A stretch of 64,000 bases of DNA. It comes from an uncultured Bacteroidales bacterium. Its GTDB lineage: Bacteria; Bacteroidota; Bacteroidia; Bacteroidales; BM520. This document shows, one piece after another, positions 9,901 to 18,148 of this stretch. Within the stretch, counting starts at the first letter, position 1. Every line of letters begins with the position of its first letter. The notes under the pieces are model-generated. The model did not search any database and was not told the DNA's origin. It worked only from the letters and a program-made list of their open reading frames with translations. The stretch is taken from assembly GCA_964594665.1 (NCBI GenBank), contig CAZQNY010000003.1, positions 3,225-67,224 on the forward strand. Direction: 5' to 3'. The position numbers and the translations under genes were made by a program.

Positions 9901-10824
9901 TTAATTCAGATTATCCGGATTGTTCTGATTCTGATACATATCAGCAAATTCTTTTGTTAACACTTCTGTTACTTCGCTTTTAAATGCAAACTCATTTCTA
10001 ATATCGTTGACATACGCTTTGACTTTAACTTTGAGCATTACTTTATGTCCGATTTTTTCCTGAAAAAATAATACTGCAATGGGTTTGTTGAGATAGATGT
10101 GTTTTGAAACCTGCGCTGTCTCCATGGCAAAATTTCTAACCCTGTTTATGTCACATGACAGCGGCAGGTAAATTTCAGTAACAACCTGGCAATTCTCTTC
10201 TCCGGAGTTGGCATTGGATACCGGCATATTCATGACGTCAGAATTTGGAACACTCACAAGATTATCATCGCTTGTTACCAGACGTGTGGAGCGTAATCCA
10301 ACACCAACTATTTCGCCGTAGTAATTCCCGATTTGTACCTTATCTCCAATCTGAAAAGGCTTGTCGAATATGATAATTATGCCACCAAAAATATTCTTTA
10401 GCAGATCCTGGGATGCAAAACCTACTGCCACACCAATCGATGCAGAAAAAGCAAGGACAGATGCCATAGGAGGCCTGAAAACTGCAACAAGAATGAATGT
10501 TAATGCACCCGTCCAGATAATTACTCTTGCCAGTGGTATCAATCCCTTGATTGTTAAACGATGCTTTGTGTTCCTCTCTGCCCACACTCCCATCATTAAA
10601 GATAAAACACGGAGAAAAATATAGGTGGAAATAATAATCAAAATGGAAAAAATGATTTTTGAGGCATTGAAATAACTGGAAATATTCCTGGTTTCCTTGT
10701 TTAGCTCACCTATGATATTGTCTCCTGAAACTGCAGTACTGTCGGCAACCTGACTGAATAGAGATACTGACGAAACTAAAATCAACAGTATTAATGGTAG
10801 GATATATTTAATGTTTTTTTTCAT
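9901..10824 (-). CDS. MscS-family mechanosensitive ion channel
   Basis: 307 aa. N-terminal signal/TM plus TM helices. Pore-helix region GVAVGFASQDLLKNIFGGIIIIFDKPFQIGD followed by a beta domain. The ATG lies 11 nt after the stop of the upstream ATPase gene. Confidence 0.9.
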   Translation of the reverse strand: MKKNIKYILPLILLILVSSVSLFSQVADSTAVSGDNIIGELNKETRNISSYFNASKIIFSILIIISTYIFLRVLSLMMGVWAERNTKHRLTIKGLIPLARVIIWTGALTFILVAVFRPPMASVLAFSASIGVAVGFASQDLLKNIFGGIIIIFDKPFQIGDKVQIGNYYGEIVGVGLRSTRLVTSDDNLVSVPNSDVMNMPVSNANSGEENCQVVTEIYLPLSCDINRVRNFAMETAQVSKHIYLNKPIAVLFFQEKIGHKVMLKVKVKAYVNDIRNEFAFKSEVTEVLTKEFADMYQNQNNPDNLN

Positions 10825-10835
10825 CTTTTCCCGGA

Positions 10836-13784
10836 TTAATGTATGAGATTTTTGCTTTTTAAAAGCTGAATTACATGTCGGTATAGTATTCCGTTTAACA
10901 TATAATTATTGCCCTTTAGGATAAGAATGGAATCTTCTTTAAGTATTGTAAGCACTTTAAGGCTTTTTCCTGTGCTTTGATTACAGACTGAGGCATGAAT
11001 GTCAACCGATATCTTTCCATGTAGTACAATTAATAAAAGCGTATAGATTTTTTCTGAAGAAAGAGTTTCCAGAAAAGTAAAGTCGGGGGTACTAAACTTT
11101 TTTATAAATAGATCTTTATCCGTAAATTTTGATATTGATTCCAGCCAGAAGTAGAGCGACAGACTTATGTTACTTCCTGAGAACCTGTTTAGCTGCATAA
11201 AGAATTCCTTTTCCAGCTGAATCTGCCGGTCTTTTGCCTTTTTATTATCCGGAGTCATATTTTGTTCATCATCATAATGAACTACATACCCACTAAGTCG
11301 GTGTCTTTTGAGAATTATATTCCGAACTTCATCCGCATCAAGGGTGTTGAGTTCAACCATATAATCGAAGTTTTCTTTAATCGATACGGTTTTATTTAGG
11401 TAATTACAGGCATGCAGTGAAACAGAACAAACCCACAAAGCCATGTTGTTGGTAGAAACAATAAATGAAAGCAATTTCTGAAGGCATTCAAACCCTCCTG
11501 GTTTTCTAATAAAAGCACGCTCAAGGCCATCCAAAATTATGATCTGATTCCCTTTCAACAACTCAAGGTGCTGTAATACATCCTTTTCCGTTTTCAGGTT
11601 TTCGTTATCAAAAAGATCCTGCATTAAGGTGTAAAAATCTTTTTCGCTGTGATAAAACCTGTGGATGGTGTAATAATAAATTTTATCGCTTCCTTTAATA
11701 GTTTTGATATAGTGCTGAAGTAGCGATGTTTTCCCGCAACCATTTTCGCCAATCACAAGAGTTGCGGCGTAATTTCCTGATTTCCAGTCTTTAAGCGCGG
11801 TTTCTATTTTTTCCAGCTCCTTCCGTCGTGATAGAAACAGATTAATTTCTTTAACGGGCGCATTTTCAAACAGATAGCGATAGATGACCGGTAGTTTATA
11901 GATTCTTGTATTGATATCAGCAAGGTAGTTGGAGATTTCTGACGACACAAAAACCGGTGCTTTGTCGAGTTTTAACTTTTTGCGTATCGAATAATAGGAG
12001 TCAATAAGCATTGTGTATTGCCTTTTTATGAATGACCCAACTGATTTTGCCACTTGTGATAAACCCCCAAAAATTTTACCCCGCTTATTTTTGGATTCTT
12101 CAATAGCTTTTAACTTTATAAGGCTGGAGTAGATGCTAAGAATGCGATCGTTGTTGTCAAGACTTTTAATATTTTCAATAAATTCAACATAAAAACCCTC
12201 CAGATCATTATCTCTCATGTGCAATATATCGTCTCCAATCAAGGTTGTGCGATCCAGAATATTTAATGACCGCTTCATGCCTTCCTTAAACATCAGAATT
12301 GTTTCTTCCTGGTTGCTTTGAGTATTGACCATTGATATGGCGGTATCAAGGGAAAAATCTATGATCTGATCAAAGTCGCTAAACTCAGCGATTATTTTCT
12401 GAAATTGTTCCTTAAAATTGTCGGAAGATAATTTAATGCTTTTAAAGAACGGAGGTATACATTTATAATTAATAAATTCACTTGGCGAGAAGAAATAGAT
12501 ATCTGATTTGTCGATCCCATTCATGTAGTCGGGTGAACGAACCACTCCCGATCGGGCAGACATTTTTTCCAGAGCTTTATTGACATCAACCTCTGTTTTC
12601 TGTAGTAATTTTTCAATTTCTAAACCTGTTTTACTGAAATTTCCAACGGCGCTTTGAGTATTTCCTTCCTTATGCAATTTGTAAAGCTCTGAGGTAAAGA
12701 AATGCTTCAACATTGCGTTATTTGTTAAATCAGGTTCCGGAACCTGTTTAATCAATTGTTCTAAGTAGGTTCTTTTTTGTGCAATTACAGGATGAATGGT
12801 TTTCTTTAATTTTTCTGTATAAAGGTTTAAAACTTCAGATCGTTGGTTTTTAATTGTTGAAATGAAAGTATATAGCTCCTCTCTGAAACGCCATCCTTCA
12901 TACAACGCGTATAAAGTTGAATCCCATTGCTTGCAGGTTTCTTCAGCTTGCGAGAAGATATTTCTTACATTTCTTTTCTTCCTGAAACGAATATAGAAAC
13001 CCGGGAATTCTGTTGTTCCCGACTTTTTTAAATGTGAAATAAATTCAGATTTATAGCCCTTAAAAAAGTCATTAATATTCTCAATATCTTCATTGATATC
13101 ATCAATCACTAAAGGGTTAACCTTTACATTTTCAGTGTTGTAGTTATCATTAATGATTTGCCCTTCCAGTTGAAAAAGGTTATGTGCCAGATGAGTAAGT
13201 TTTTTCTGAACTTCAGACACACTCTTTAGGGAAAAGAGAATATATTCATTTATTAAAAAGCCTTTTACAATATCACGGTAATAAATGTTATGACTTCTCT
13301 CTTTTAATGGTTTAGGCTGTTTCTTGCGAAATTTTGCAATACCGTTATTGATTTGGAGAGGAGCATTTTCAATATAAAAGAGAAAGTCTCCGGCTTTTCT
13401 GAGTATTTTACTTCCGAGGCTTGCTTTTTCAGTATATCCCAATCCGTTGGTATAAGAATCTGTAATTATTGAATCAAGGTTGTCGGCATCCATCATAAGT
13501 CCGGCTTTGAGCGTATTGAGAAAATCTTTTATCTCAGTTTTGGACTTTAAATTGGGGTTCAGTGATTTTAGCAGTTCCAGGTTACGGGCATGAAATGCGC
13601 ATAAATCTTTTTCGGCAGGCTTCCCGGGTTTATTTATTAATGTTTCAATATTCTCCCTGATACGTTGAAGAGTAGTTGCCTGTTCCCGAACATATTCTGA
13701 AACAATTGGCTTAATAGTATTATTCCACGCAACGACAAGCCTTTCTGATTTTTCGCTCAAGCTTTTTATGGTATCATTGTGCAT
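10836..13784 (-). CDS. Large P-loop NTPase of unknown function (Walker A in the C-terminal third, wHTH-like tail)
   Basis: 982 aa with no TM segment. About 670 aa of K/N/E/I-rich, apparently helical sequence, then Walker A VIGENGCGKTSLL, Walker B-like NQIIILDGLE, and a C-terminal segment LLLIVLHGKISVDIHASVCNQSTGKSLKVLTILKEDSILI resembling a winged helix. Confidence 0.75.
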   Translation of the reverse strand: MHNDTIKSLSEKSERLVVAWNNTIKPIVSEYVREQATTLQRIRENIETLINKPGKPAEKDLCAFHARNLELLKSLNPNLKSKTEIKDFLNTLKAGLMMDADNLDSIITDSYTNGLGYTEKASLGSKILRKAGDFLFYIENAPLQINNGIAKFRKKQPKPLKERSHNIYYRDIVKGFLINEYILFSLKSVSEVQKKLTHLAHNLFQLEGQIINDNYNTENVKVNPLVIDDINEDIENINDFFKGYKSEFISHLKKSGTTEFPGFYIRFRKKRNVRNIFSQAEETCKQWDSTLYALYEGWRFREELYTFISTIKNQRSEVLNLYTEKLKKTIHPVIAQKRTYLEQLIKQVPEPDLTNNAMLKHFFTSELYKLHKEGNTQSAVGNFSKTGLEIEKLLQKTEVDVNKALEKMSARSGVVRSPDYMNGIDKSDIYFFSPSEFINYKCIPPFFKSIKLSSDNFKEQFQKIIAEFSDFDQIIDFSLDTAISMVNTQSNQEETILMFKEGMKRSLNILDRTTLIGDDILHMRDNDLEGFYVEFIENIKSLDNNDRILSIYSSLIKLKAIEESKNKRGKIFGGLSQVAKSVGSFIKRQYTMLIDSYYSIRKKLKLDKAPVFVSSEISNYLADINTRIYKLPVIYRYLFENAPVKEINLFLSRRKELEKIETALKDWKSGNYAATLVIGENGCGKTSLLQHYIKTIKGSDKIYYYTIHRFYHSEKDFYTLMQDLFDNENLKTEKDVLQHLELLKGNQIIILDGLERAFIRKPGGFECLQKLLSFIVSTNNMALWVCSVSLHACNYLNKTVSIKENFDYMVELNTLDADEVRNIILKRHRLSGYVVHYDDEQNMTPDNKKAKDRQIQLEKEFFMQLNRFSGSNISLSLYFWLESISKFTDKDLFIKKFSTPDFTFLETLSSEKIYTLLLIVLHGKISVDIHASVCNQSTGKSLKVLTILKEDSILILKGNNYMLNGILYRHVIQLLKSKNLIH

Positions 13785-14012
13785 GTTGAGATTTTTAGTC
13801 AGTTATTTTTTTGGCAAATCACATCAATAGAGCATATCACCTGTGTCATATTATAAAAATACGATTAAAAATAATATGAAAGCATTTTTATTGCGTCAAA
13901 AAAACCAAAGGAGCATAATCAAACTATTAATTAACGAAGTGGAACACTTAAGAATTCAATTCTGTTATGATAACAACGGTTACCAAAACATGTCATACAG
14001 ACCATTTAATTA

Positions 14013-15998
14013 TTAAGGTAGTTTATGGCCATTCCGTTGTTTATTATTTGTCAGATTGATATGCCTGATATTCTTTAATATTTCGATTCGATCAACAAAG
14101 GTGTCAATAACCATATTATACAATTCGTCACCCAGAACCTCATCTTCAACGCCAAAATCTATATTGGGGTTATCATTTACTTCTATTACATAAACTTTAT
14201 TATTCACATATTTTAGGTCAACACCATACAATCCATCTCCTATCAAAGATGCGGCTTTTAAGGCTAAGCTAACAATTTCCTCTGGCACCTGGCTGATTGG
14301 GAGGGTTTCATAGTTACCTGATTTGTCCTCTTCATCGCTGTTCCAGTTATATATTTGCCAATGGTTCTGGGTCATATAATACTTGCAGGCATATATTGGC
14401 TTGTTATCAAGTATGCCTATTCTCCAGTCGAATTCTGAATAAAGAAATTCCTGACATATCACCATATCAGTTTTTTTAAACAGTAATGCTAATTGCGTTT
14501 TTGCTTCATTTTGGTCGTTTACTTTTATCACACCTAACGAAAAAGCACTGTCAGGCTGCTTTAATACTGCCGGATATTTAATGCTTTCAAGCATCTTGTC
14601 ATTGAACATGTTTTTTGTTAAAGAGAGTGTTTTAGGTGTTCTGATTTTGTTTTTTTTGAATAACTCATTTTGGTAAATCTTATTGGAACACCTGAGGATT
14701 GACCATGGATCGTCAATGACAACAAGGCCTTCAGCGAAAGCCAAACGGGAGAGTTCGTATGTGTAATGATTAACATTGGTGGTCTCACGGATGAAAAGGG
14801 CATCAAATTCATTTATTTTATTGGTGTCATGTTTGCTTATAAATTCTATATAAACTCCTTTTTTGTTGGCTGCCTTACGGAATCGCTCCAGTGCTTCTTT
14901 ATTGGAAGGCGGATTCTCTTCATAGGGATTAATCAAAATTGCAATATCGTAACTGTAGTTATTTAATTTAGGTAAATTATAACGTTTTTTATTAAAGTGC
15001 TTTTGTGCAGCGTAGTAAAAAAGTGCTTTTTGGTCGTTTTTCAGATCTTTAAATGTTAACGCCTTAATGTTTTTTATAATCCATTTTTCCGATTTAATGA
15101 AGTTAACGGTGAATATCGGGACCTCAAAAACCTGGAATAGTTTGATAGCTAAAGTTTTGTATTTGGTGTGTGGCGTTTGGCCAAAATATATATCAAGAGA
15201 TAAACTATGATTTGCTTCCTTATAAAGTATCCGGTTTACCTGATCGCCGAGTTCGTATGAAAGTGATTGGACCACGTTGGCAATTTGTACGTCTTTTATT
15301 GTCGATGTACTTGGAATCGCCCGTTGGCCTCTGGCGGAGGCTAATAATGAAACATAATAACCATAACTTTGGTATCTGTATGAACTACATAAGTTGAAGA
15401 TTCTAAAACTTGCATTGTTCTGATACAATGGATTATTAATATAATCCTTCACTGAAATAACTTTTGCTTTTATATCGGTGTTTTTCCAGGAATACGGATG
15501 GTCGATTACGATCAGGTTTTTATTCTCTTTTTCAACGCCTGTTTCTCCTGTTCTCAACCCCAGTTTAAGTGCATCTTCTTCAGGCTGGTAATAGTCTTTC
15601 AATGTTTTCAAAACAATAAAGCCTTTTGACAGATACCATTCAATTAATTTTTTATTTTTTGCCCTTGCTTCCAGTGTAATGCTTTTGTAATTGTGATTTA
15701 TCGCGTAGGTTTTGATATATTCAAGTAATGCATTTCCAATGCCACAGTTTTGATACTCGGCCAATATACCAATTGAATAAATGCGGAGCATATGCTTGTA
15801 TTTAAACAAAACGGCCGACCCTACAGGTTTTATTTCGCTTTTTGCATCTTCAACCATAATAATTTCCTGGAAAGGACTTAGGATGCTTTTTTTTAAGCTG
15901 TTTTTTGTTGTTTGTTGAAAAGCAGGGAAAGATTCTTGTTCCAGCGTTACAAGAAATTCAATGTCGTCAGTATTTGCATTCCGATAAATGAGATTCAT
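14013..15998 (-). CDS. GNAT acetyltransferase fused to a RimK-type ATP-grasp ligase (three-part amidoligase)
   Basis: 661 aa from the ATG at 15998; the track start at 16007 is TTG. N-terminal GNAT (IGILAEYQNCGIGNALLEYI). Middle segment FRIFNLCSSYRYQSYGYYVSLLASARGQRAIPS, RLAN-like from memory. C-terminal ATP-grasp (PAVLKQPDSAFSLGV, VYVIEVNDNPNIDFG). Confidence 0.8.
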   Translation of the reverse strand: MNLIYRNANTDDIEFLVTLEQESFPAFQQTTKNSLKKSILSPFQEIIMVEDAKSEIKPVGSAVLFKYKHMLRIYSIGILAEYQNCGIGNALLEYIKTYAINHNYKSITLEARAKNKKLIEWYLSKGFIVLKTLKDYYQPEEDALKLGLRTGETGVEKENKNLIVIDHPYSWKNTDIKAKVISVKDYINNPLYQNNASFRIFNLCSSYRYQSYGYYVSLLASARGQRAIPSTSTIKDVQIANVVQSLSYELGDQVNRILYKEANHSLSLDIYFGQTPHTKYKTLAIKLFQVFEVPIFTVNFIKSEKWIIKNIKALTFKDLKNDQKALFYYAAQKHFNKKRYNLPKLNNYSYDIAILINPYEENPPSNKEALERFRKAANKKGVYIEFISKHDTNKINEFDALFIRETTNVNHYTYELSRLAFAEGLVVIDDPWSILRCSNKIYQNELFKKNKIRTPKTLSLTKNMFNDKMLESIKYPAVLKQPDSAFSLGVIKVNDQNEAKTQLALLFKKTDMVICQEFLYSEFDWRIGILDNKPIYACKYYMTQNHWQIYNWNSDEEDKSGNYETLPISQVPEEIVSLALKAASLIGDGLYGVDLKYVNNKVYVIEVNDNPNIDFGVEDEVLGDELYNMVIDTFVDRIEILKNIRHINLTNNKQRNGHKLP

Positions 15999-16019
15999 TT
16001 TTTTCAATGTGTTGAAAAG

Positions 16020-17261
16020 TTAATACTCCCGTAAGCTTCTTTCAATATATTCCAGTTGCCAGATTTTGAATAGTAACAGATCGGAAGGAGGCTCAGTGGG
16101 TTCATTTTCCATGATAGTATTTATTTGCAACTGCTGTTCAGCTGTGAGTTTATTTTCAGTGAATATGGTCAGGAGCTGGCATAAATAATTTGCTCCATTT
16201 ATATTTATGGTTATATCACCGGTTGTGCCGGGCTGTAACCGGAATAACCTGATGGTTTTATAGGTTATGGCATCGCCGGAATATTCACGAATATATCCAT
16301 TCTCTGTAATTATTGCATCAGGAAAGATTTTTCGGCTGATAATCCGTCGATAACCAGCTTTTTGAAAGCGGTTTTTAAAATGAAAGGAACAGTAATTGAT
16401 TCCTGTTTCAAGTCCGCATTTTTGGGCTTCATAAATTATCTCCAGTGCTGCCAGCTCCGATTCTACTACAAGAGGCCTCTCGTCGCATAAGATATGGTAG
16501 TTTCTCTCGATTAGTTTGTTCACATTATGATGTGTCAGCCGCAGATGATGCAGATTCAGGTTGGAGACCCCTGCTTCGACCATTTTGGGAAGCATTTGAA
16601 TAATCCTGTCCTTTTCTTCAGGAACACAAGGAATCTCAATCGTAATAACCGGGATAATACCCTTAGCGATTTTTACTTTATTGAGGTTGTATTCTGTTGC
16701 ACCAATATCAAAGCGTATCTCGTTGAGGTTTTCTTTTGCCAATGCCCGTAGCTTTGATTCATCTGCCAGCAAGCCATTGGTGTACATCCATATATACAGA
16801 TTTGGATTGCATTTTTGCCTTAAAACCTTCAGGTATTCAAGGGTGCGGTCGAAATATAATAGCGGCTCGCCACCACTAAAACTAACACCTTCAAACCCAA
16901 AATGATTAATGTAGTTTGCGTAATCATATGGATTGTCAAAGTCTATTCCCTGGGTTGACGGCAGCTCATCATTCTTTTGTGGCGCAGGGCAATAAAAGCA
17001 ATTTGCATTGCACTTGTTGGTGATAAACAGGCAGCTCCATTTTCCTGATCCGCAGATTTGACAACCTTTGGAAATATGGTTTAGGTACGGTTTTGTATCT
17101 TTAAAAAGCGGAACATTTTTAAATGTTTGTAAAAGCCTTGTTCTATAATCCTCTGAATCCTTTGCCATGTGAGGATTTAACCATTGCAGTTCAGGGTATT
17201 GGGAGAATTCATTTTTCGTTTTTGTAACTAATGAGTTCATCCATAAATATTTTGCTTCCAT
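16020..17261 (-). CDS. Radical SAM enzyme, subfamily not assignable by eye
   Basis: 413 aa. CNANCFYC (CX3CX2C) preceded by CQICGSGKWSC. SFSGGEPLL glycine-rich SAM motif. No Cys-rich SPASM-type C-terminus. Confidence 0.85.
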   Translation of the reverse strand: MEAKYLWMNSLVTKTKNEFSQYPELQWLNPHMAKDSEDYRTRLLQTFKNVPLFKDTKPYLNHISKGCQICGSGKWSCLFITNKCNANCFYCPAPQKNDELPSTQGIDFDNPYDYANYINHFGFEGVSFSGGEPLLYFDRTLEYLKVLRQKCNPNLYIWMYTNGLLADESKLRALAKENLNEIRFDIGATEYNLNKVKIAKGIIPVITIEIPCVPEEKDRIIQMLPKMVEAGVSNLNLHHLRLTHHNVNKLIERNYHILCDERPLVVESELAALEIIYEAQKCGLETGINYCSFHFKNRFQKAGYRRIISRKIFPDAIITENGYIREYSGDAITYKTIRLFRLQPGTTGDITININGANYLCQLLTIFTENKLTAEQQLQINTIMENEPTEPPSDLLLFKIWQLEYIERSLREY

Positions 17262-17741
17262 TATCTGTTATTGAGAAAGAATATTCAGGCATATCAGCCG
17301 AGGCTGTATAGAAAATTAAGGGTAGAAAAAGCTGATCCGGAAGCTTTAGAGCTCAGAGAAAATATACAGGAACATTAGAAACTGTTCCAGTGATATGAAA
17401 GCCGCACATGTTTTGACTTTTATAAGCATATTTATCATTATAAGAAGGCCGGAAAGGTACTGCTTTTTTTGAATGAATAGGTGAAGGATGTATTATTCCT
17501 TTATAATTACAGGAATTAGCCAACCATCACGTAATTTTACGAAATGTGGCCCGGTGTAACTCCGGACTGAATATCCATATTATACGTTAAATGGTAACCC
17601 TTCGGCTACGGGCAATTTGCAGGGTTTGAATGGCAGGCGTAGTTTTGGCATAGACCCGAGATAACACTTACCGGACGCCAAAAAAATGCAGAAAGTGTTG
17701 CTGCAGAGGGAGACCAGCAGACGATCATCGGCTCAGTTTAT

Positions 17742-17761
17742 CCCCCCCCCCCCAAAAAAAA
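17742..17761. repeat. Homopolymer tract C12 immediately followed by A8
   Basis: Counted directly: C at 17742-17753 and A at 17754-17761. It lies in the ~890-bp divergent intergenic region. Confidence 0.95.
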
Positions 17762-18148
17762 TTCAATGAATGCACTTTTTACTACCGGGAGGTAAAGCAC
17801 AGGAAAAAGACGAGCAAGATGTAAAGCCTCACCGCCGTGTGAGGCTCCCCAAAATGCCTATTTGATCTCACCGTCATATTCCCTCTTTCTCCCTTCTTCA
17901 CAATTAGGAAATCGTTCTACTTTAACGGTGGGTCAATACTGTTAAACCAACAACGGATAAACCGCATTTTACAAAGGTTGAGGGTAACAGCTCAATCCAG
18001 TAGTATCACTCCCTGCAACTTTTTGAAACCTCCCCTGCAAACTCTTGCAGCCCTTATTGCAACGGGGATTTAAAGAGTTACTGCTACATTGCAGCACTTT
18101 GCGAATTCATCACCAAAGTGCAATTTGTTTAACCCTAAATCCTTTATT

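Follow-up and report, generated by a model that had tools for sequence, protein, structure and literature searches.

Several described systems bring together enzymes of the kinds considered here. PqqE, MftC and the SCIFF maturase, all radical S-adenosylmethionine (SAM) enzymes, act on peptides of their own, and SCIFF is known as a two-gene cassette of peptide and radical SAM enzyme without protease or exporter; GNAT and ATP-grasp enzymes tailor the microviridins. Small-molecule counterparts include Ngg/AsnO for N-acetylglutaminylglutamine amide, AblA/AblB for N-epsilon-acetyl-beta-lysine, and NAT8L with RIMKLA/RIMKLB, which lead through N-acetylaspartate to N-acetylaspartylglutamate (NAAG). 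The locus analysed here lies in a stretch of 64,000 nucleotides (nt) from an uncultured Bacteroidales bacterium (GenBank assembly GCA_964594665.1, contig CAZQNY010000003.1, positions 3,225 to 67,224), the whole of which is called the window. It comprises a micro-open reading frame (micro-ORF), a radical SAM gene and a gene that fuses a GNAT domain, a RimK-like ATP-grasp N-terminal (RLAN) domain and a RimK-type ATP-grasp domain. A first-pass annotation, made from the sequence, had held that the two enzymes fit none of Ngg/AsnO, AblA/AblB or the microviridin pathway, and the model searches agree: neither TIGR03103 nor the MvdC-type model matches the fusion, and the radical SAM protein shows no KamA signature.

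In the window the three genes form a co-directional, same-strand module, laid out as follows.

17429..17346, minus strand: micro-ORF, 27 amino acids plus stop; an in-frame ATG further upstream, at 17438, would give 30 amino acids
17262..17345, minus strand: spacer between micro-ORF and radical SAM gene, pyrimidine-rich, G-poor and poorly conserved
17261..16020, minus strand: radical SAM gene, 413 amino acids
16989..17063, minus strand: cysteine-rich segment of the radical SAM gene, C67-x2-C70-x6-C77-x6-C84-x3-C88-x2-C91 (the codon of C291 is at 16389-16391)
15998 (ATG) or 16007 (TTG) to 14013, minus strand: GNAT–RLAN–RimK-type ATP-grasp fusion gene, 661 or 664 amino acids
About 15953-15618, 15449-15015 and 14687-14157, minus strand: GNAT, RLAN and ATP-grasp domains of the fusion, respectively (Pfam)

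The micro-ORF ends 84 nt before the radical SAM start codon, and the ATG of the fusion follows the radical SAM stop after a gap of 21 nt. The first pass had drawn the 661-residue fusion at this distance, and Pfam bears out its GNAT, RLAN and ATP-grasp calls. It had seen no convincing precursor-peptide gene, and here it erred: the 27-codon ORF is the most conserved partner that the radical SAM gene has.

That partnership emerges from a scan of one genome per species, which gave 80 radical SAM loci (81 with the window added). Further samples were 80 metagenome loci centred on the fusion, seven loci of distant radical SAM homologues and, for conserved residues, an alignment of 135 representatives of the radical SAM family. 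The micro-ORF family was first seen in 57 loci, on clustering small ORFs near radical SAM genes; a targeted scan finds it in 70 of the 81, and micro-ORF plus radical SAM gene are thus the conserved core of the module.

In the window the micro-ORF translates to MLIKVKTCAAFISLEQFLMFLYIFSEL, followed by the stop codon, and so ends in LMFLYIFSEL. Across loci it is 30 amino acids long in 32 cases and 27 in 20, and stands a median of 67 nt before the radical SAM gene (51-147 nt in most loci). Its conserved end reads L-[MLI]-F-[LM]-[YF]-[IV]-F-S-[ED]-L-stop; conservation is confined to the C-terminal 13 or so residues and the N-terminal half is variable. Of 70 loci, 68 have Leu at position -10, written with six different codons, and all 70 have Ser at -3, written with four; the stop itself is TAA in 47, TGA in 18 and TAG in 5. 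This synonymous-codon pattern proves the micro-ORF to be coding, with selection on its amino acids and not on RNA. The core of the peptide is better conserved than the radical SAM enzyme, which is about 50-70% identical across the loci of the sample. One locus (L046, 9863-9886) carries the motif with three extra residues (…FLMFLYVFSELSST, then stop), so that the invariant Leu is not always C-terminal.

The motif was not found elsewhere in 2.55 Mb read in six frames, and matches outside the radical SAM set lie only beside a radical SAM gene or at a contig end just past a fusion. The peptide has no family in Pfam or NCBIfam at E<=10 and was not found in a collection of 15 billion proteins; nor does the motif occur inside longer family members, 519 proteins having been examined. 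The micro-ORF is thus absent from each of the collections queried, and the kinds of component gathered here (radical SAM, GNAT, ATP-grasp, small ORF) are already known. In loci where the fusion comes first, the micro-ORF lies between both genes, starting -4 to +70 nt from the fusion stop (in L054 it overlaps that stop by 4 nt). It is missing where the start of a full-length radical SAM gene abuts the gene upstream, as after the fusion in L036 and L056 and after a channel gene of the MscS family in L053. Eleven of the 81 loci fall below the micro-ORF threshold, and in most of these the radical SAM gene is full-length yet has no micro-ORF within 10 kb. Upstream of the seven distant homologues no comparable ORF was found, with a weak resemblance in Geovibrio; these enzymes nevertheless retain all seven cysteines of the family and its other conserved residues. 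Adjacency and amino-acid selection are what peptide-plus-radical SAM cassettes display, and a same-strand upstream ORF with a conserved C-terminal segment is equally what leader and arrest peptides display.

The RNA level was examined as well. Across loci the spacer consists of 43% T, 22% C, 26% A and 10% G; it has no stable fold (mean z-score -0.25), and Rfam gave no match on 17100-18100. A hairpin inside the micro-ORF (GGAACA/TGTTCC) was rejected, at least five of six positions pairing in only 32 of 70 loci with weak covariation; it can probably be put down to Glu/Lys and Phe codons. A sigma-70 promoter scan gave sites no commoner than in shuffled sequence, with a consensus unsuited to Bacteroidota. 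At 17346-17360 of the window, and also in L002, L003, L027 and L076, GAG CTN TAA can pair with a following AGCTC or AGCTT, giving a small hairpin or palindrome with the stop codon at its centre; this occurs in part of the Marinilabiliaceae clade and is absent in the Prolixibacteraceae clade.

The radical SAM protein carries CQICGSGKWSC, CNANCFYC and SFSGGEPLL within its 413 residues and lacks a SPASM-type C-terminus, all as the first pass had read it. Its superfamily membership is given by C84-x3-C88-x2-C91, by Pfam (Radical_SAM PF04055 at 54.8 bits, cutoff 29.5, and Fer4_12) and by an AlphaFold model (mean predicted local distance difference test, pLDDT, 92) whose core matches viperin, MoaA, NifB and LipA. 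Below the superfamily level, every NCBIfam score stays short of its cutoff (for maturase models, 18-45 bits where 260-850 are required), and the protein does not fall into a known activase or maturase family. Foldseek against the PDB returns generic radical SAM cores only (viperin, NifB, MoaA, LipA and SPASM maturases, query-normalised TM-score at most 0.42), and the best PDB sequence match, the SCIFF maturase CteB, is weak (E 2.4e-6).

Three narrower classes were considered for this protein and rejected. For the SPASM/twitch peptide maturases, Pfam, AlphaFold and Foldseek found neither a SPASM domain (none in Pfam) nor a twitch domain nor a recognition element (RRE) for ribosomally synthesised peptides with post-translational modifications (RiPPs); the N-terminal secondary structure of the model is not RRE-like, and C291 is the only conserved cysteine past residue 91. 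For the glycyl-radical activases, to which the source annotation 'PFL activating enzyme-like' (PFL, pyruvate formate-lyase) points, PFLA at 23.8 bits (cutoff 231) and NrdG at 24-27 bits (126-131) both fall short, and no glycyl-radical enzyme was found among the recurrent neighbours in the 80 loci. For KamA/AblA, Pfam reports only Radical_SAM and Fer4_12, and the 25 best NCBIfam families listed do not include KamA.

The first pass had also registered the extra N-terminal cysteines; the motif is there, but it is no incidental feature. C67, C70, C77 and C291 are present, along with the triad C84, C88 and C91, in at least 99% of the 135 representatives, and the remaining cysteine positions are conserved in at most 7%. 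Because the four additional cysteines are conserved across the family, they probably hold a second cluster or metal site, N-terminal as in LipA and unlike SPASM. The family itself is large: the window protein as query gives 1,825 matches at E<=1e-5, and searching with a profile yields 3,055 representatives at E<=1e-3 or, at the stricter E<=1e-30, 504 clusters (50% identity). Named near relatives are Marinilabiliales (Draconibacterium, Maribellus, Carboxylicivirga, Marinifilum, Plebeiibacterium), and distant members, of 440-500 amino acids, come from Desulfobacterota, Calditrichia, Geovibrio, Omnitrophica and others.

A few observations on these distant relatives may be recorded. In P0342, P0386 and P0369 the radical SAM core is fused to a GlcNAc-type glycosyltransferase (PF11397), a GT8-like domain or a B12-binding radical SAM protein; these are unnamed clusters of one or two members, may be gene-calling artefacts and were not used. 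Just upstream of one distant homologue, in a Desulfuromonadales-type metagenome-assembled genome (L172, 2537-2863), is a gene for a 108-residue RF-1-domain protein resembling the ArfB-type peptidyl-tRNA hydrolase, and in L173 and L174 a DEAD-box helicase gene follows the distant radical SAM gene. A hint of a link to translation is possible, as is chance.

In the 664-residue numbering of the fusion, Pfam places GNAT at residues 19-130 (PF00583, 41.7 bits, cutoff 20.7), RLAN at 187-331 (PF14401, 153.4 bits, cutoff 25, E 4.5e-45) and the RimK-type ATP-grasp domain at 441-617 (PF08443, 42.6 bits, cutoff 21). The protein is accordingly a GNAT family member and, with RLAN N-terminal to a RimK-type ATP-grasp domain, an RLAN-domain RimK-like ligase. 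No NCBIfam model reaches its cutoff, the best being rimK_fam, LysX, MptN and rimI. Assignment to RimK proper was rejected (TIGR00768 rimK_fam 81 bits, cutoff 143.4; NF007764 not among the matches listed), as was assignment to RimI (TIGR01575, 55.4 bits, cutoff 86.4). In the AlphaFold model (pLDDT 77.5) the C-terminal 300 or so residues form a complete ATP-grasp enzyme that fits RimK, LysX/ArgX and Ddl with target-normalised TM-scores of 0.73-0.83, LysX/ArgX being the best fold match of this half (0.83) and RimK also appearing (Foldseek). By sequence, the PDB matches it to RimI, to N-terminal acetyltransferases of archaea and eukaryotes, to Ddl, and to chains of LysX and RimK.

Proteins of this architecture number more than 7,600 homologues, in Marinilabiliales and Flavobacteriales (Tenacibaculum, Seonamhaeicola), and the fusion is widespread across Bacteroidota, with a mean column identity of 68-71%. 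In a check for horizontal transfer, the fusion block has a G+C content of 0.35-0.39 against 0.41 for the window, and other window genes are equally low. Proteobacterial RLAN plus ATP-grasp proteins without GNAT, 41-46% identical to the fusion, are encoded as isolated genes in Pseudomonas aeruginosa, Legionella and Azospirillum. The P. aeruginosa example (L085, NZ_CP133752.1, 38432-40021) is a 529-residue 'RimK family alpha-L-glutamate ligase', 41% identical to the fusion; it is flanked by genes for a short-chain dehydrogenase/reductase and a pyridoxal phosphate-dependent aminotransferase, and ggt and a glutamate/aspartate ATP-binding cassette transporter are close by. The searches made returned no study of this protein. 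RLAN was reportedly defined by Iyer et al. in 2009. Literature searches on RLAN/PF14401, COG2108, PA1345 and radical SAM plus RimK brought up nothing on these families, and in the literature searched we found no characterised member of either enzyme family.

How firmly are the two enzymes joined? The fusion lies within 10 kb of the radical SAM gene, on its strand, in 20 of the 80 species-level genomes (21 of 81 with the window), and directly adjoins it in 18 (13 with the fusion upstream, 5 with it downstream). A linked fusion is always on the radical SAM strand, both gene orders occur, and the intergenic gaps of adjacent pairs range from -4 to about 220 nt. When all neighbouring ORFs are clustered, the fusion is the sole neighbour family present in more than 10 of the 80 loci. 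Linked cases fall into at least seven separate clades of the radical SAM tree, with differing flanks, and on the fusion tree linked copies occur in both major clades, mixed among unlinked ones. The adjacency on which the first-pass proposal turned does therefore recur in related genomes. Because adjacency of two single-copy genes would not recur in this way by chance, the pair is a recurrent and non-random one.

It is also facultative. The fusion is missing from 60 of the 80 radical SAM loci, and among the fusion-centred metagenome loci 77 of 80 are without a radical SAM gene (3 have one); no other neighbour family occurs in more than five of the latter, and three additional fusion contexts are all unlike one another. 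The seven distant radical SAM loci have neither a fusion nor an ATP-grasp neighbour. Maribellus sediminis, M. mangrovi and Draconibacterium orientale possess both genes, but far apart or on separate contigs. Even the nearest relatives of the window genes are unlinked, both those of the radical SAM gene (L002 and L004-L007, where the contig is long enough) and those of the fusion (L081, L082, L092-L096). Both enzymes thus belong to large families that are mostly encoded stand-alone. Since the pair is facultative and both genes are unlinked in the species named, the first-pass idea of a dedicated pathway, an N-acyl dipeptide further altered by radical chemistry, is not the simplest reading.

The explanation that we prefer, tentatively, is that a leader-peptide-controlled radical SAM enzyme and a housekeeping-type ligase act on one common target. 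Neither enzyme would need the other, and their repeated joining would most likely reflect one process on a widely present target; because linked and unlinked fusions are interspersed and both enzymes stand alone elsewhere, a shared process or target suggests itself in place of a private two-step pathway. The fusion is likely to do the same job with or without the radical SAM gene nearby. It can be envisioned as a RimI/NAT-like N-alpha-acetyltransferase joined to a RimK/LysX-like alpha-amino-acid ligase, which would use ATP to activate a carboxylate by turning it into an acyl phosphate, and would add an amino acid, probably L-glutamate. Its substrate would be a protein or peptide terminus, for example on a component of the translation apparatus. 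Such a terminus is favoured, by analogy, because the characterised relatives of both halves act there and because a RimB–RimK gene adjoins some fusions; a free N-acetyl-dipeptide is a less likely product. The radical SAM enzyme, with its probable second cluster (C67, C70, C77, C291), may catalyse a 5'-deoxyadenosyl-radical step on that target; the organisms are facultative anaerobes.

The micro-ORF, under this preferred explanation, would act in cis as a translated leader, similar to TnaC or SpeFL, that sets radical SAM expression. Taken by itself, the proposal that the micro-ORF is a leader comes fairly near to an even chance; that its product is a substrate is somewhat less probable, and a role as something other than leader or substrate is unlikely. 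In favour of a leader, the micro-ORF is dispensable in about 10% of loci and absent by distant homologues that keep every conserved residue, the radical SAM enzyme has no RRE or SPASM domain, and only the C-terminal 13 or so residues of the peptide are conserved. A peptide of 27-30 amino acids would fit inside the ribosomal exit tunnel. The C-rich, G-poor and unstructured spacer looks like a Rho loading site, by analogy with Rho-dependent control of the tna type.

Several points weigh against this explanation. The argument for a common target is indirect. The MscS and bacterioferritin-like neighbours described below are ill-suited to a target in the translation apparatus. No conserved RNA switch was found by Rfam, fold z-scores or hairpin covariation, although TnaC-type control needs none. 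An intercistronic micro-ORF in fusion-first loci, with the 4-nt overlap of L054, looks more like an ordinary small gene. Ten conserved residues in a row exceed most known arrest peptides, and by base rate a small conserved ORF beside a radical SAM gene is usually a substrate.

That last consideration leads to the alternative that follows closely behind, possible though doubtful: a RiPP- or cofactor-like pathway in which the micro-ORF peptide is the substrate and the radical SAM enzyme alters its invariant, aromatic-rich core (L-M-F-L-Y-I-F-S-E-L), for instance by introducing a C-C or C-O crosslink. A linked fusion would then tailor the peptide in microviridin fashion, with N-terminal acetylation and C-terminal or side-chain ligation. 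Put together, the micro-ORF may be the substrate of a new, non-SPASM radical SAM class with a probable second cluster, its product capped or extended by the RLAN ligase/acetyltransferase in a quarter of genomes, a combination that we hold at the same modest level. The strict tie of the micro-ORF to the radical SAM gene (70 of 81 loci and never elsewhere in the 2.55 Mb), the selection on peptide and not RNA with a core more conserved than the enzyme, the tight packing with both enzymes (including the overlap with the fusion stop in L054) and the weak match to CteB all speak for a substrate, and SCIFF provides the precedent of a cassette that needs no protease or exporter. Against a substrate stand the 11 loci below threshold, the distant members that keep seven cysteines without such an ORF, the missing RRE, SPASM and twitch domains, and the peptide's lack of a match to any known precursor family; nor was a conserved protease or exporter found near the radical SAM gene on neighbour clustering in the 80 loci. 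The fusion, moreover, is widespread where neither peptide nor radical SAM gene is found nearby, so it cannot be a dedicated tailoring enzyme. Were the substrate reading true, Marinilabiliales would have, throughout the lineage, a modified peptide akin to a cofactor or signal and on a par with pyrroloquinoline quinone (PQQ), mycofactocin and SCIFF, and the RLAN ligase family would gain its first substrate.

The next alternative depends on neighbouring genes, of which the window has two downstream of the module; along 9.9-17.4 kb the radical SAM, fusion, 982-residue protein and MscS genes are all co-directional on the minus strand.

10836..13784, minus strand: gene for a 982-amino-acid P-loop nucleoside triphosphatase (NTPase) protein, with ATPase_2, AAA_22 and a NACHT-like domain at residues about 650-830 (Pfam)
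9901..10824, minus strand: MscS-family channel gene (Pfam MS_channel_2nd)

The 982-residue protein is helical over a long N-terminal stretch and carries a STAND-like P-loop NTPase domain. Its gene is separated from the fusion by 228 nt, and MscS begins 11 nt past its stop (12 nt if counted from stop-codon end to start codon). No homologue of the 982-residue gene was found in the 80 radical SAM loci or the 80 fusion loci, and neither it nor the window MscS has a counterpart in these 160 related loci. The two look like a two-gene unit of their own, and their membership in the module is doubtful. The MscS gene that the first pass had seen at 9901-10824 is real, but it is the 982-residue gene that it keeps company with, not the fusion. 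A defence system was also considered and rejected, PADLOC on the window giving weak generic matches only (pVip over the radical SAM core, and P-loop).

Other neighbours recur on a smaller scale. In 10 of the 80 loci, which fall in two clades, the radical SAM gene or the fusion is directly preceded on its strand by the gene for an MscS paralogue of about 280 residues (L012, L014, L015, L040, L051, L053, L054, L065, L070, L073; five of these without the fusion); the window MscS is only 22-26% identical to it. A distant radical SAM locus, L089, has an MscS gene about 2 kb off on the opposite strand. In 6 of 80 loci (L009 at 13547-14920, L012, L014, L015, L027, L042; Carboxylicivirga and Marinifilum) the GNAT–RLAN–ATP-grasp gene has beside it the RimB–RimK fusion (NF007764, 381 bits, cutoff 331). 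Its RimB part is retropepsin-like, and since it passes the equivalog cutoff for S6–glutamate ligase, two RimK-clade ligases stand side by side in these loci. A bacterioferritin/rubrerythrin-like gene of 164 amino acids is found beside the fusion–radical SAM pair in 9 of the 80 loci, within the Mariniphaga/Prolixibacteraceae clade (L003, L036, L047, L050, L055, L056, L062, L068, L069).

With these neighbours in view, a small-molecule pathway in glutamate or osmotic homeostasis may be considered, though it is unlikely. The fusion would acetylate an amino acid and ligate L-glutamate to it, giving an N-acetyl-dipeptide or capped oligo-alpha-glutamate; the radical SAM enzyme would modify the product or a precursor, and MscS-type channels would release the product on osmotic downshift. 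The joining of GNAT to a RimK-clade ligase suits such a pathway, as do the MscS paralogue directly upstream in 10 of 80 loci (the window has a different MscS two genes past the fusion) and the RimB–RimK gene beside six fusions. RimB–RimK makes and trims poly-alpha-glutamate (PMC11957051 and references therein), and rloABC, a further operon with a RimK-like ATP-grasp enzyme, has been linked with hypo-osmotic tolerance in Pseudomonas aeruginosa (PMC11957051). The osmolyte role proposed in the first pass gains from the recurrent MscS paralogue, but none of the results shows an osmolyte, and the tests for membership in Ngg and AblA/B all fail: TIGR03103 has no match on the fusion, the cluster has no AsnO-type gene, and no KamA signature is seen. 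Also against it, the GNAT half is closest to N-terminal acetyltransferases that act on proteins, the radical SAM enzyme is left without a chemical role and the micro-ORF without an explanation, the window MscS is a different paralogue paired with the 982-residue NTPase gene, and no MscS homologue recurs in the 80 fusion-centred metagenome contexts.

Least probable of all is the absence of any functional link, with stand-alone genes set adjacent by rearrangement and shared ancestry and a micro-ORF that concerns the radical SAM gene only: it would suit the partnerless loci (60 of 80 radical SAM, 77 of 80 fusion) and the unlinked closest relatives of both window genes, but same-strand adjacency in both orders, in at least seven clades and with gaps of -4 to about 220 nt, is not what chance would produce again and again for single-copy genes in genomes of several thousand, and no other gene family compares as a radical SAM neighbour.

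One further observation concerns a divergent intergenic region: some 310 nt before the micro-ORF, eight T and then twelve G follow one another on the minus strand (17742-17753). Chance alone predicts 0.06 runs of at least ten G, and the tract could be phase-variable or an assembly artefact.

Whichever reading holds, a recurrent operon joins two large families, the radical SAM one with 504 clusters (E<=1e-30) and the fusion with more than 7,600 homologues, for neither of which the searches made turned up a published function, and a micro-gene more conserved than the enzyme that follows it offers a way in. Should the peptide be a substrate, an order of marine facultative anaerobes would share a conserved and new peptide-modification chemistry; as a leader, it would be a candidate leader or arrest peptide in Bacteroidota, where translation initiation is unusual. 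Cultured carriers include Carboxylicivirga mesophila, Marinifilum fragile and Draconibacterium orientale.

Comparison with known systems shows where the locus resembles each and where it departs. Like Ngg, the fusion has an N-terminal GNAT and a C-terminal ATP-grasp domain in one chain, and MscS neighbours hint at an osmotic context. Unlike Ngg, it gives no match to TIGR03103 at E<=0.01 (cutoff 569 bits), a model that does match a RimK protein at 43 bits; its ligase is of the RimK clade with RLAN, and a radical SAM enzyme and a micro-ORF take the place of an AsnO-type amidotransferase. No such amidotransferase was found among the window cluster genes, nor as a recurrent family in the 160 related loci. 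A match on a Sinorhizobium plasmid (H14) was rejected as Ngg, the gene being glutathione-synthetase-like. With AblA/AblB the locus shares a radical SAM enzyme and a GNAT in one cluster and a possible osmotic link; the radical SAM enzyme here, however, has no KamA or LAM_C signature and another cysteine pattern, and the GNAT is fused to a ligase. For a small-molecule product, NAT8L with RIMKLA/RIMKLB offers the nearest working model, but these are separate mammalian proteins without RLAN or a radical SAM partner, and nothing here points to aspartate or glutamate as substrates.

The microviridin graspetides (MdnB/C, MdnD, MdnA) likewise unite ATP-grasp, GNAT and a short peptide gene in one operon. 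Here the MvdC-type model TIGR04185 has no match on the fusion, and the micro-ORF peptide, with one Ser and one or two acidic residues, has too few for the usual ester or amide rings; nor does it match the Bacteroidetes precursor families (names from PMC8939145). Closer in layout are SCIFF/ScfB (CteB), PqqA/PqqE and MftA/MftC, with a very short ORF of conserved C-terminal core directly upstream of a radical SAM gene, lineage-wide and without protease or exporter. The present enzyme differs in having no SPASM or RRE and in its N-terminal CxxCx6C plus C291, and the peptide in being missing from about 10% of loci and from distant members and in having no Cys, E-x3-Y or G-V-Y.

For the fusion, the best relatives of both halves in sequence and fold are RimK (S6 glutamate ligase and poly-alpha-glutamate synthetase), RimI (S18) and the LysW-directed LysX/ArgX; it differs from them in falling below their cutoffs, in the extra RLAN and in uniting both activities in one chain. 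For the micro-ORF, TnaC, SpeFL and ErmCL are the leader peptides to consider. It differs from these in being often intercistronic, in a conserved block that is unusually long and hydrophobic and in having no conserved RNA switch; what it shares with them is a 27-30-codon upstream ORF, a conserved C-terminal and variable N-terminal segment, and a C-rich, G-poor, unstructured spacer before the gene that it may control.

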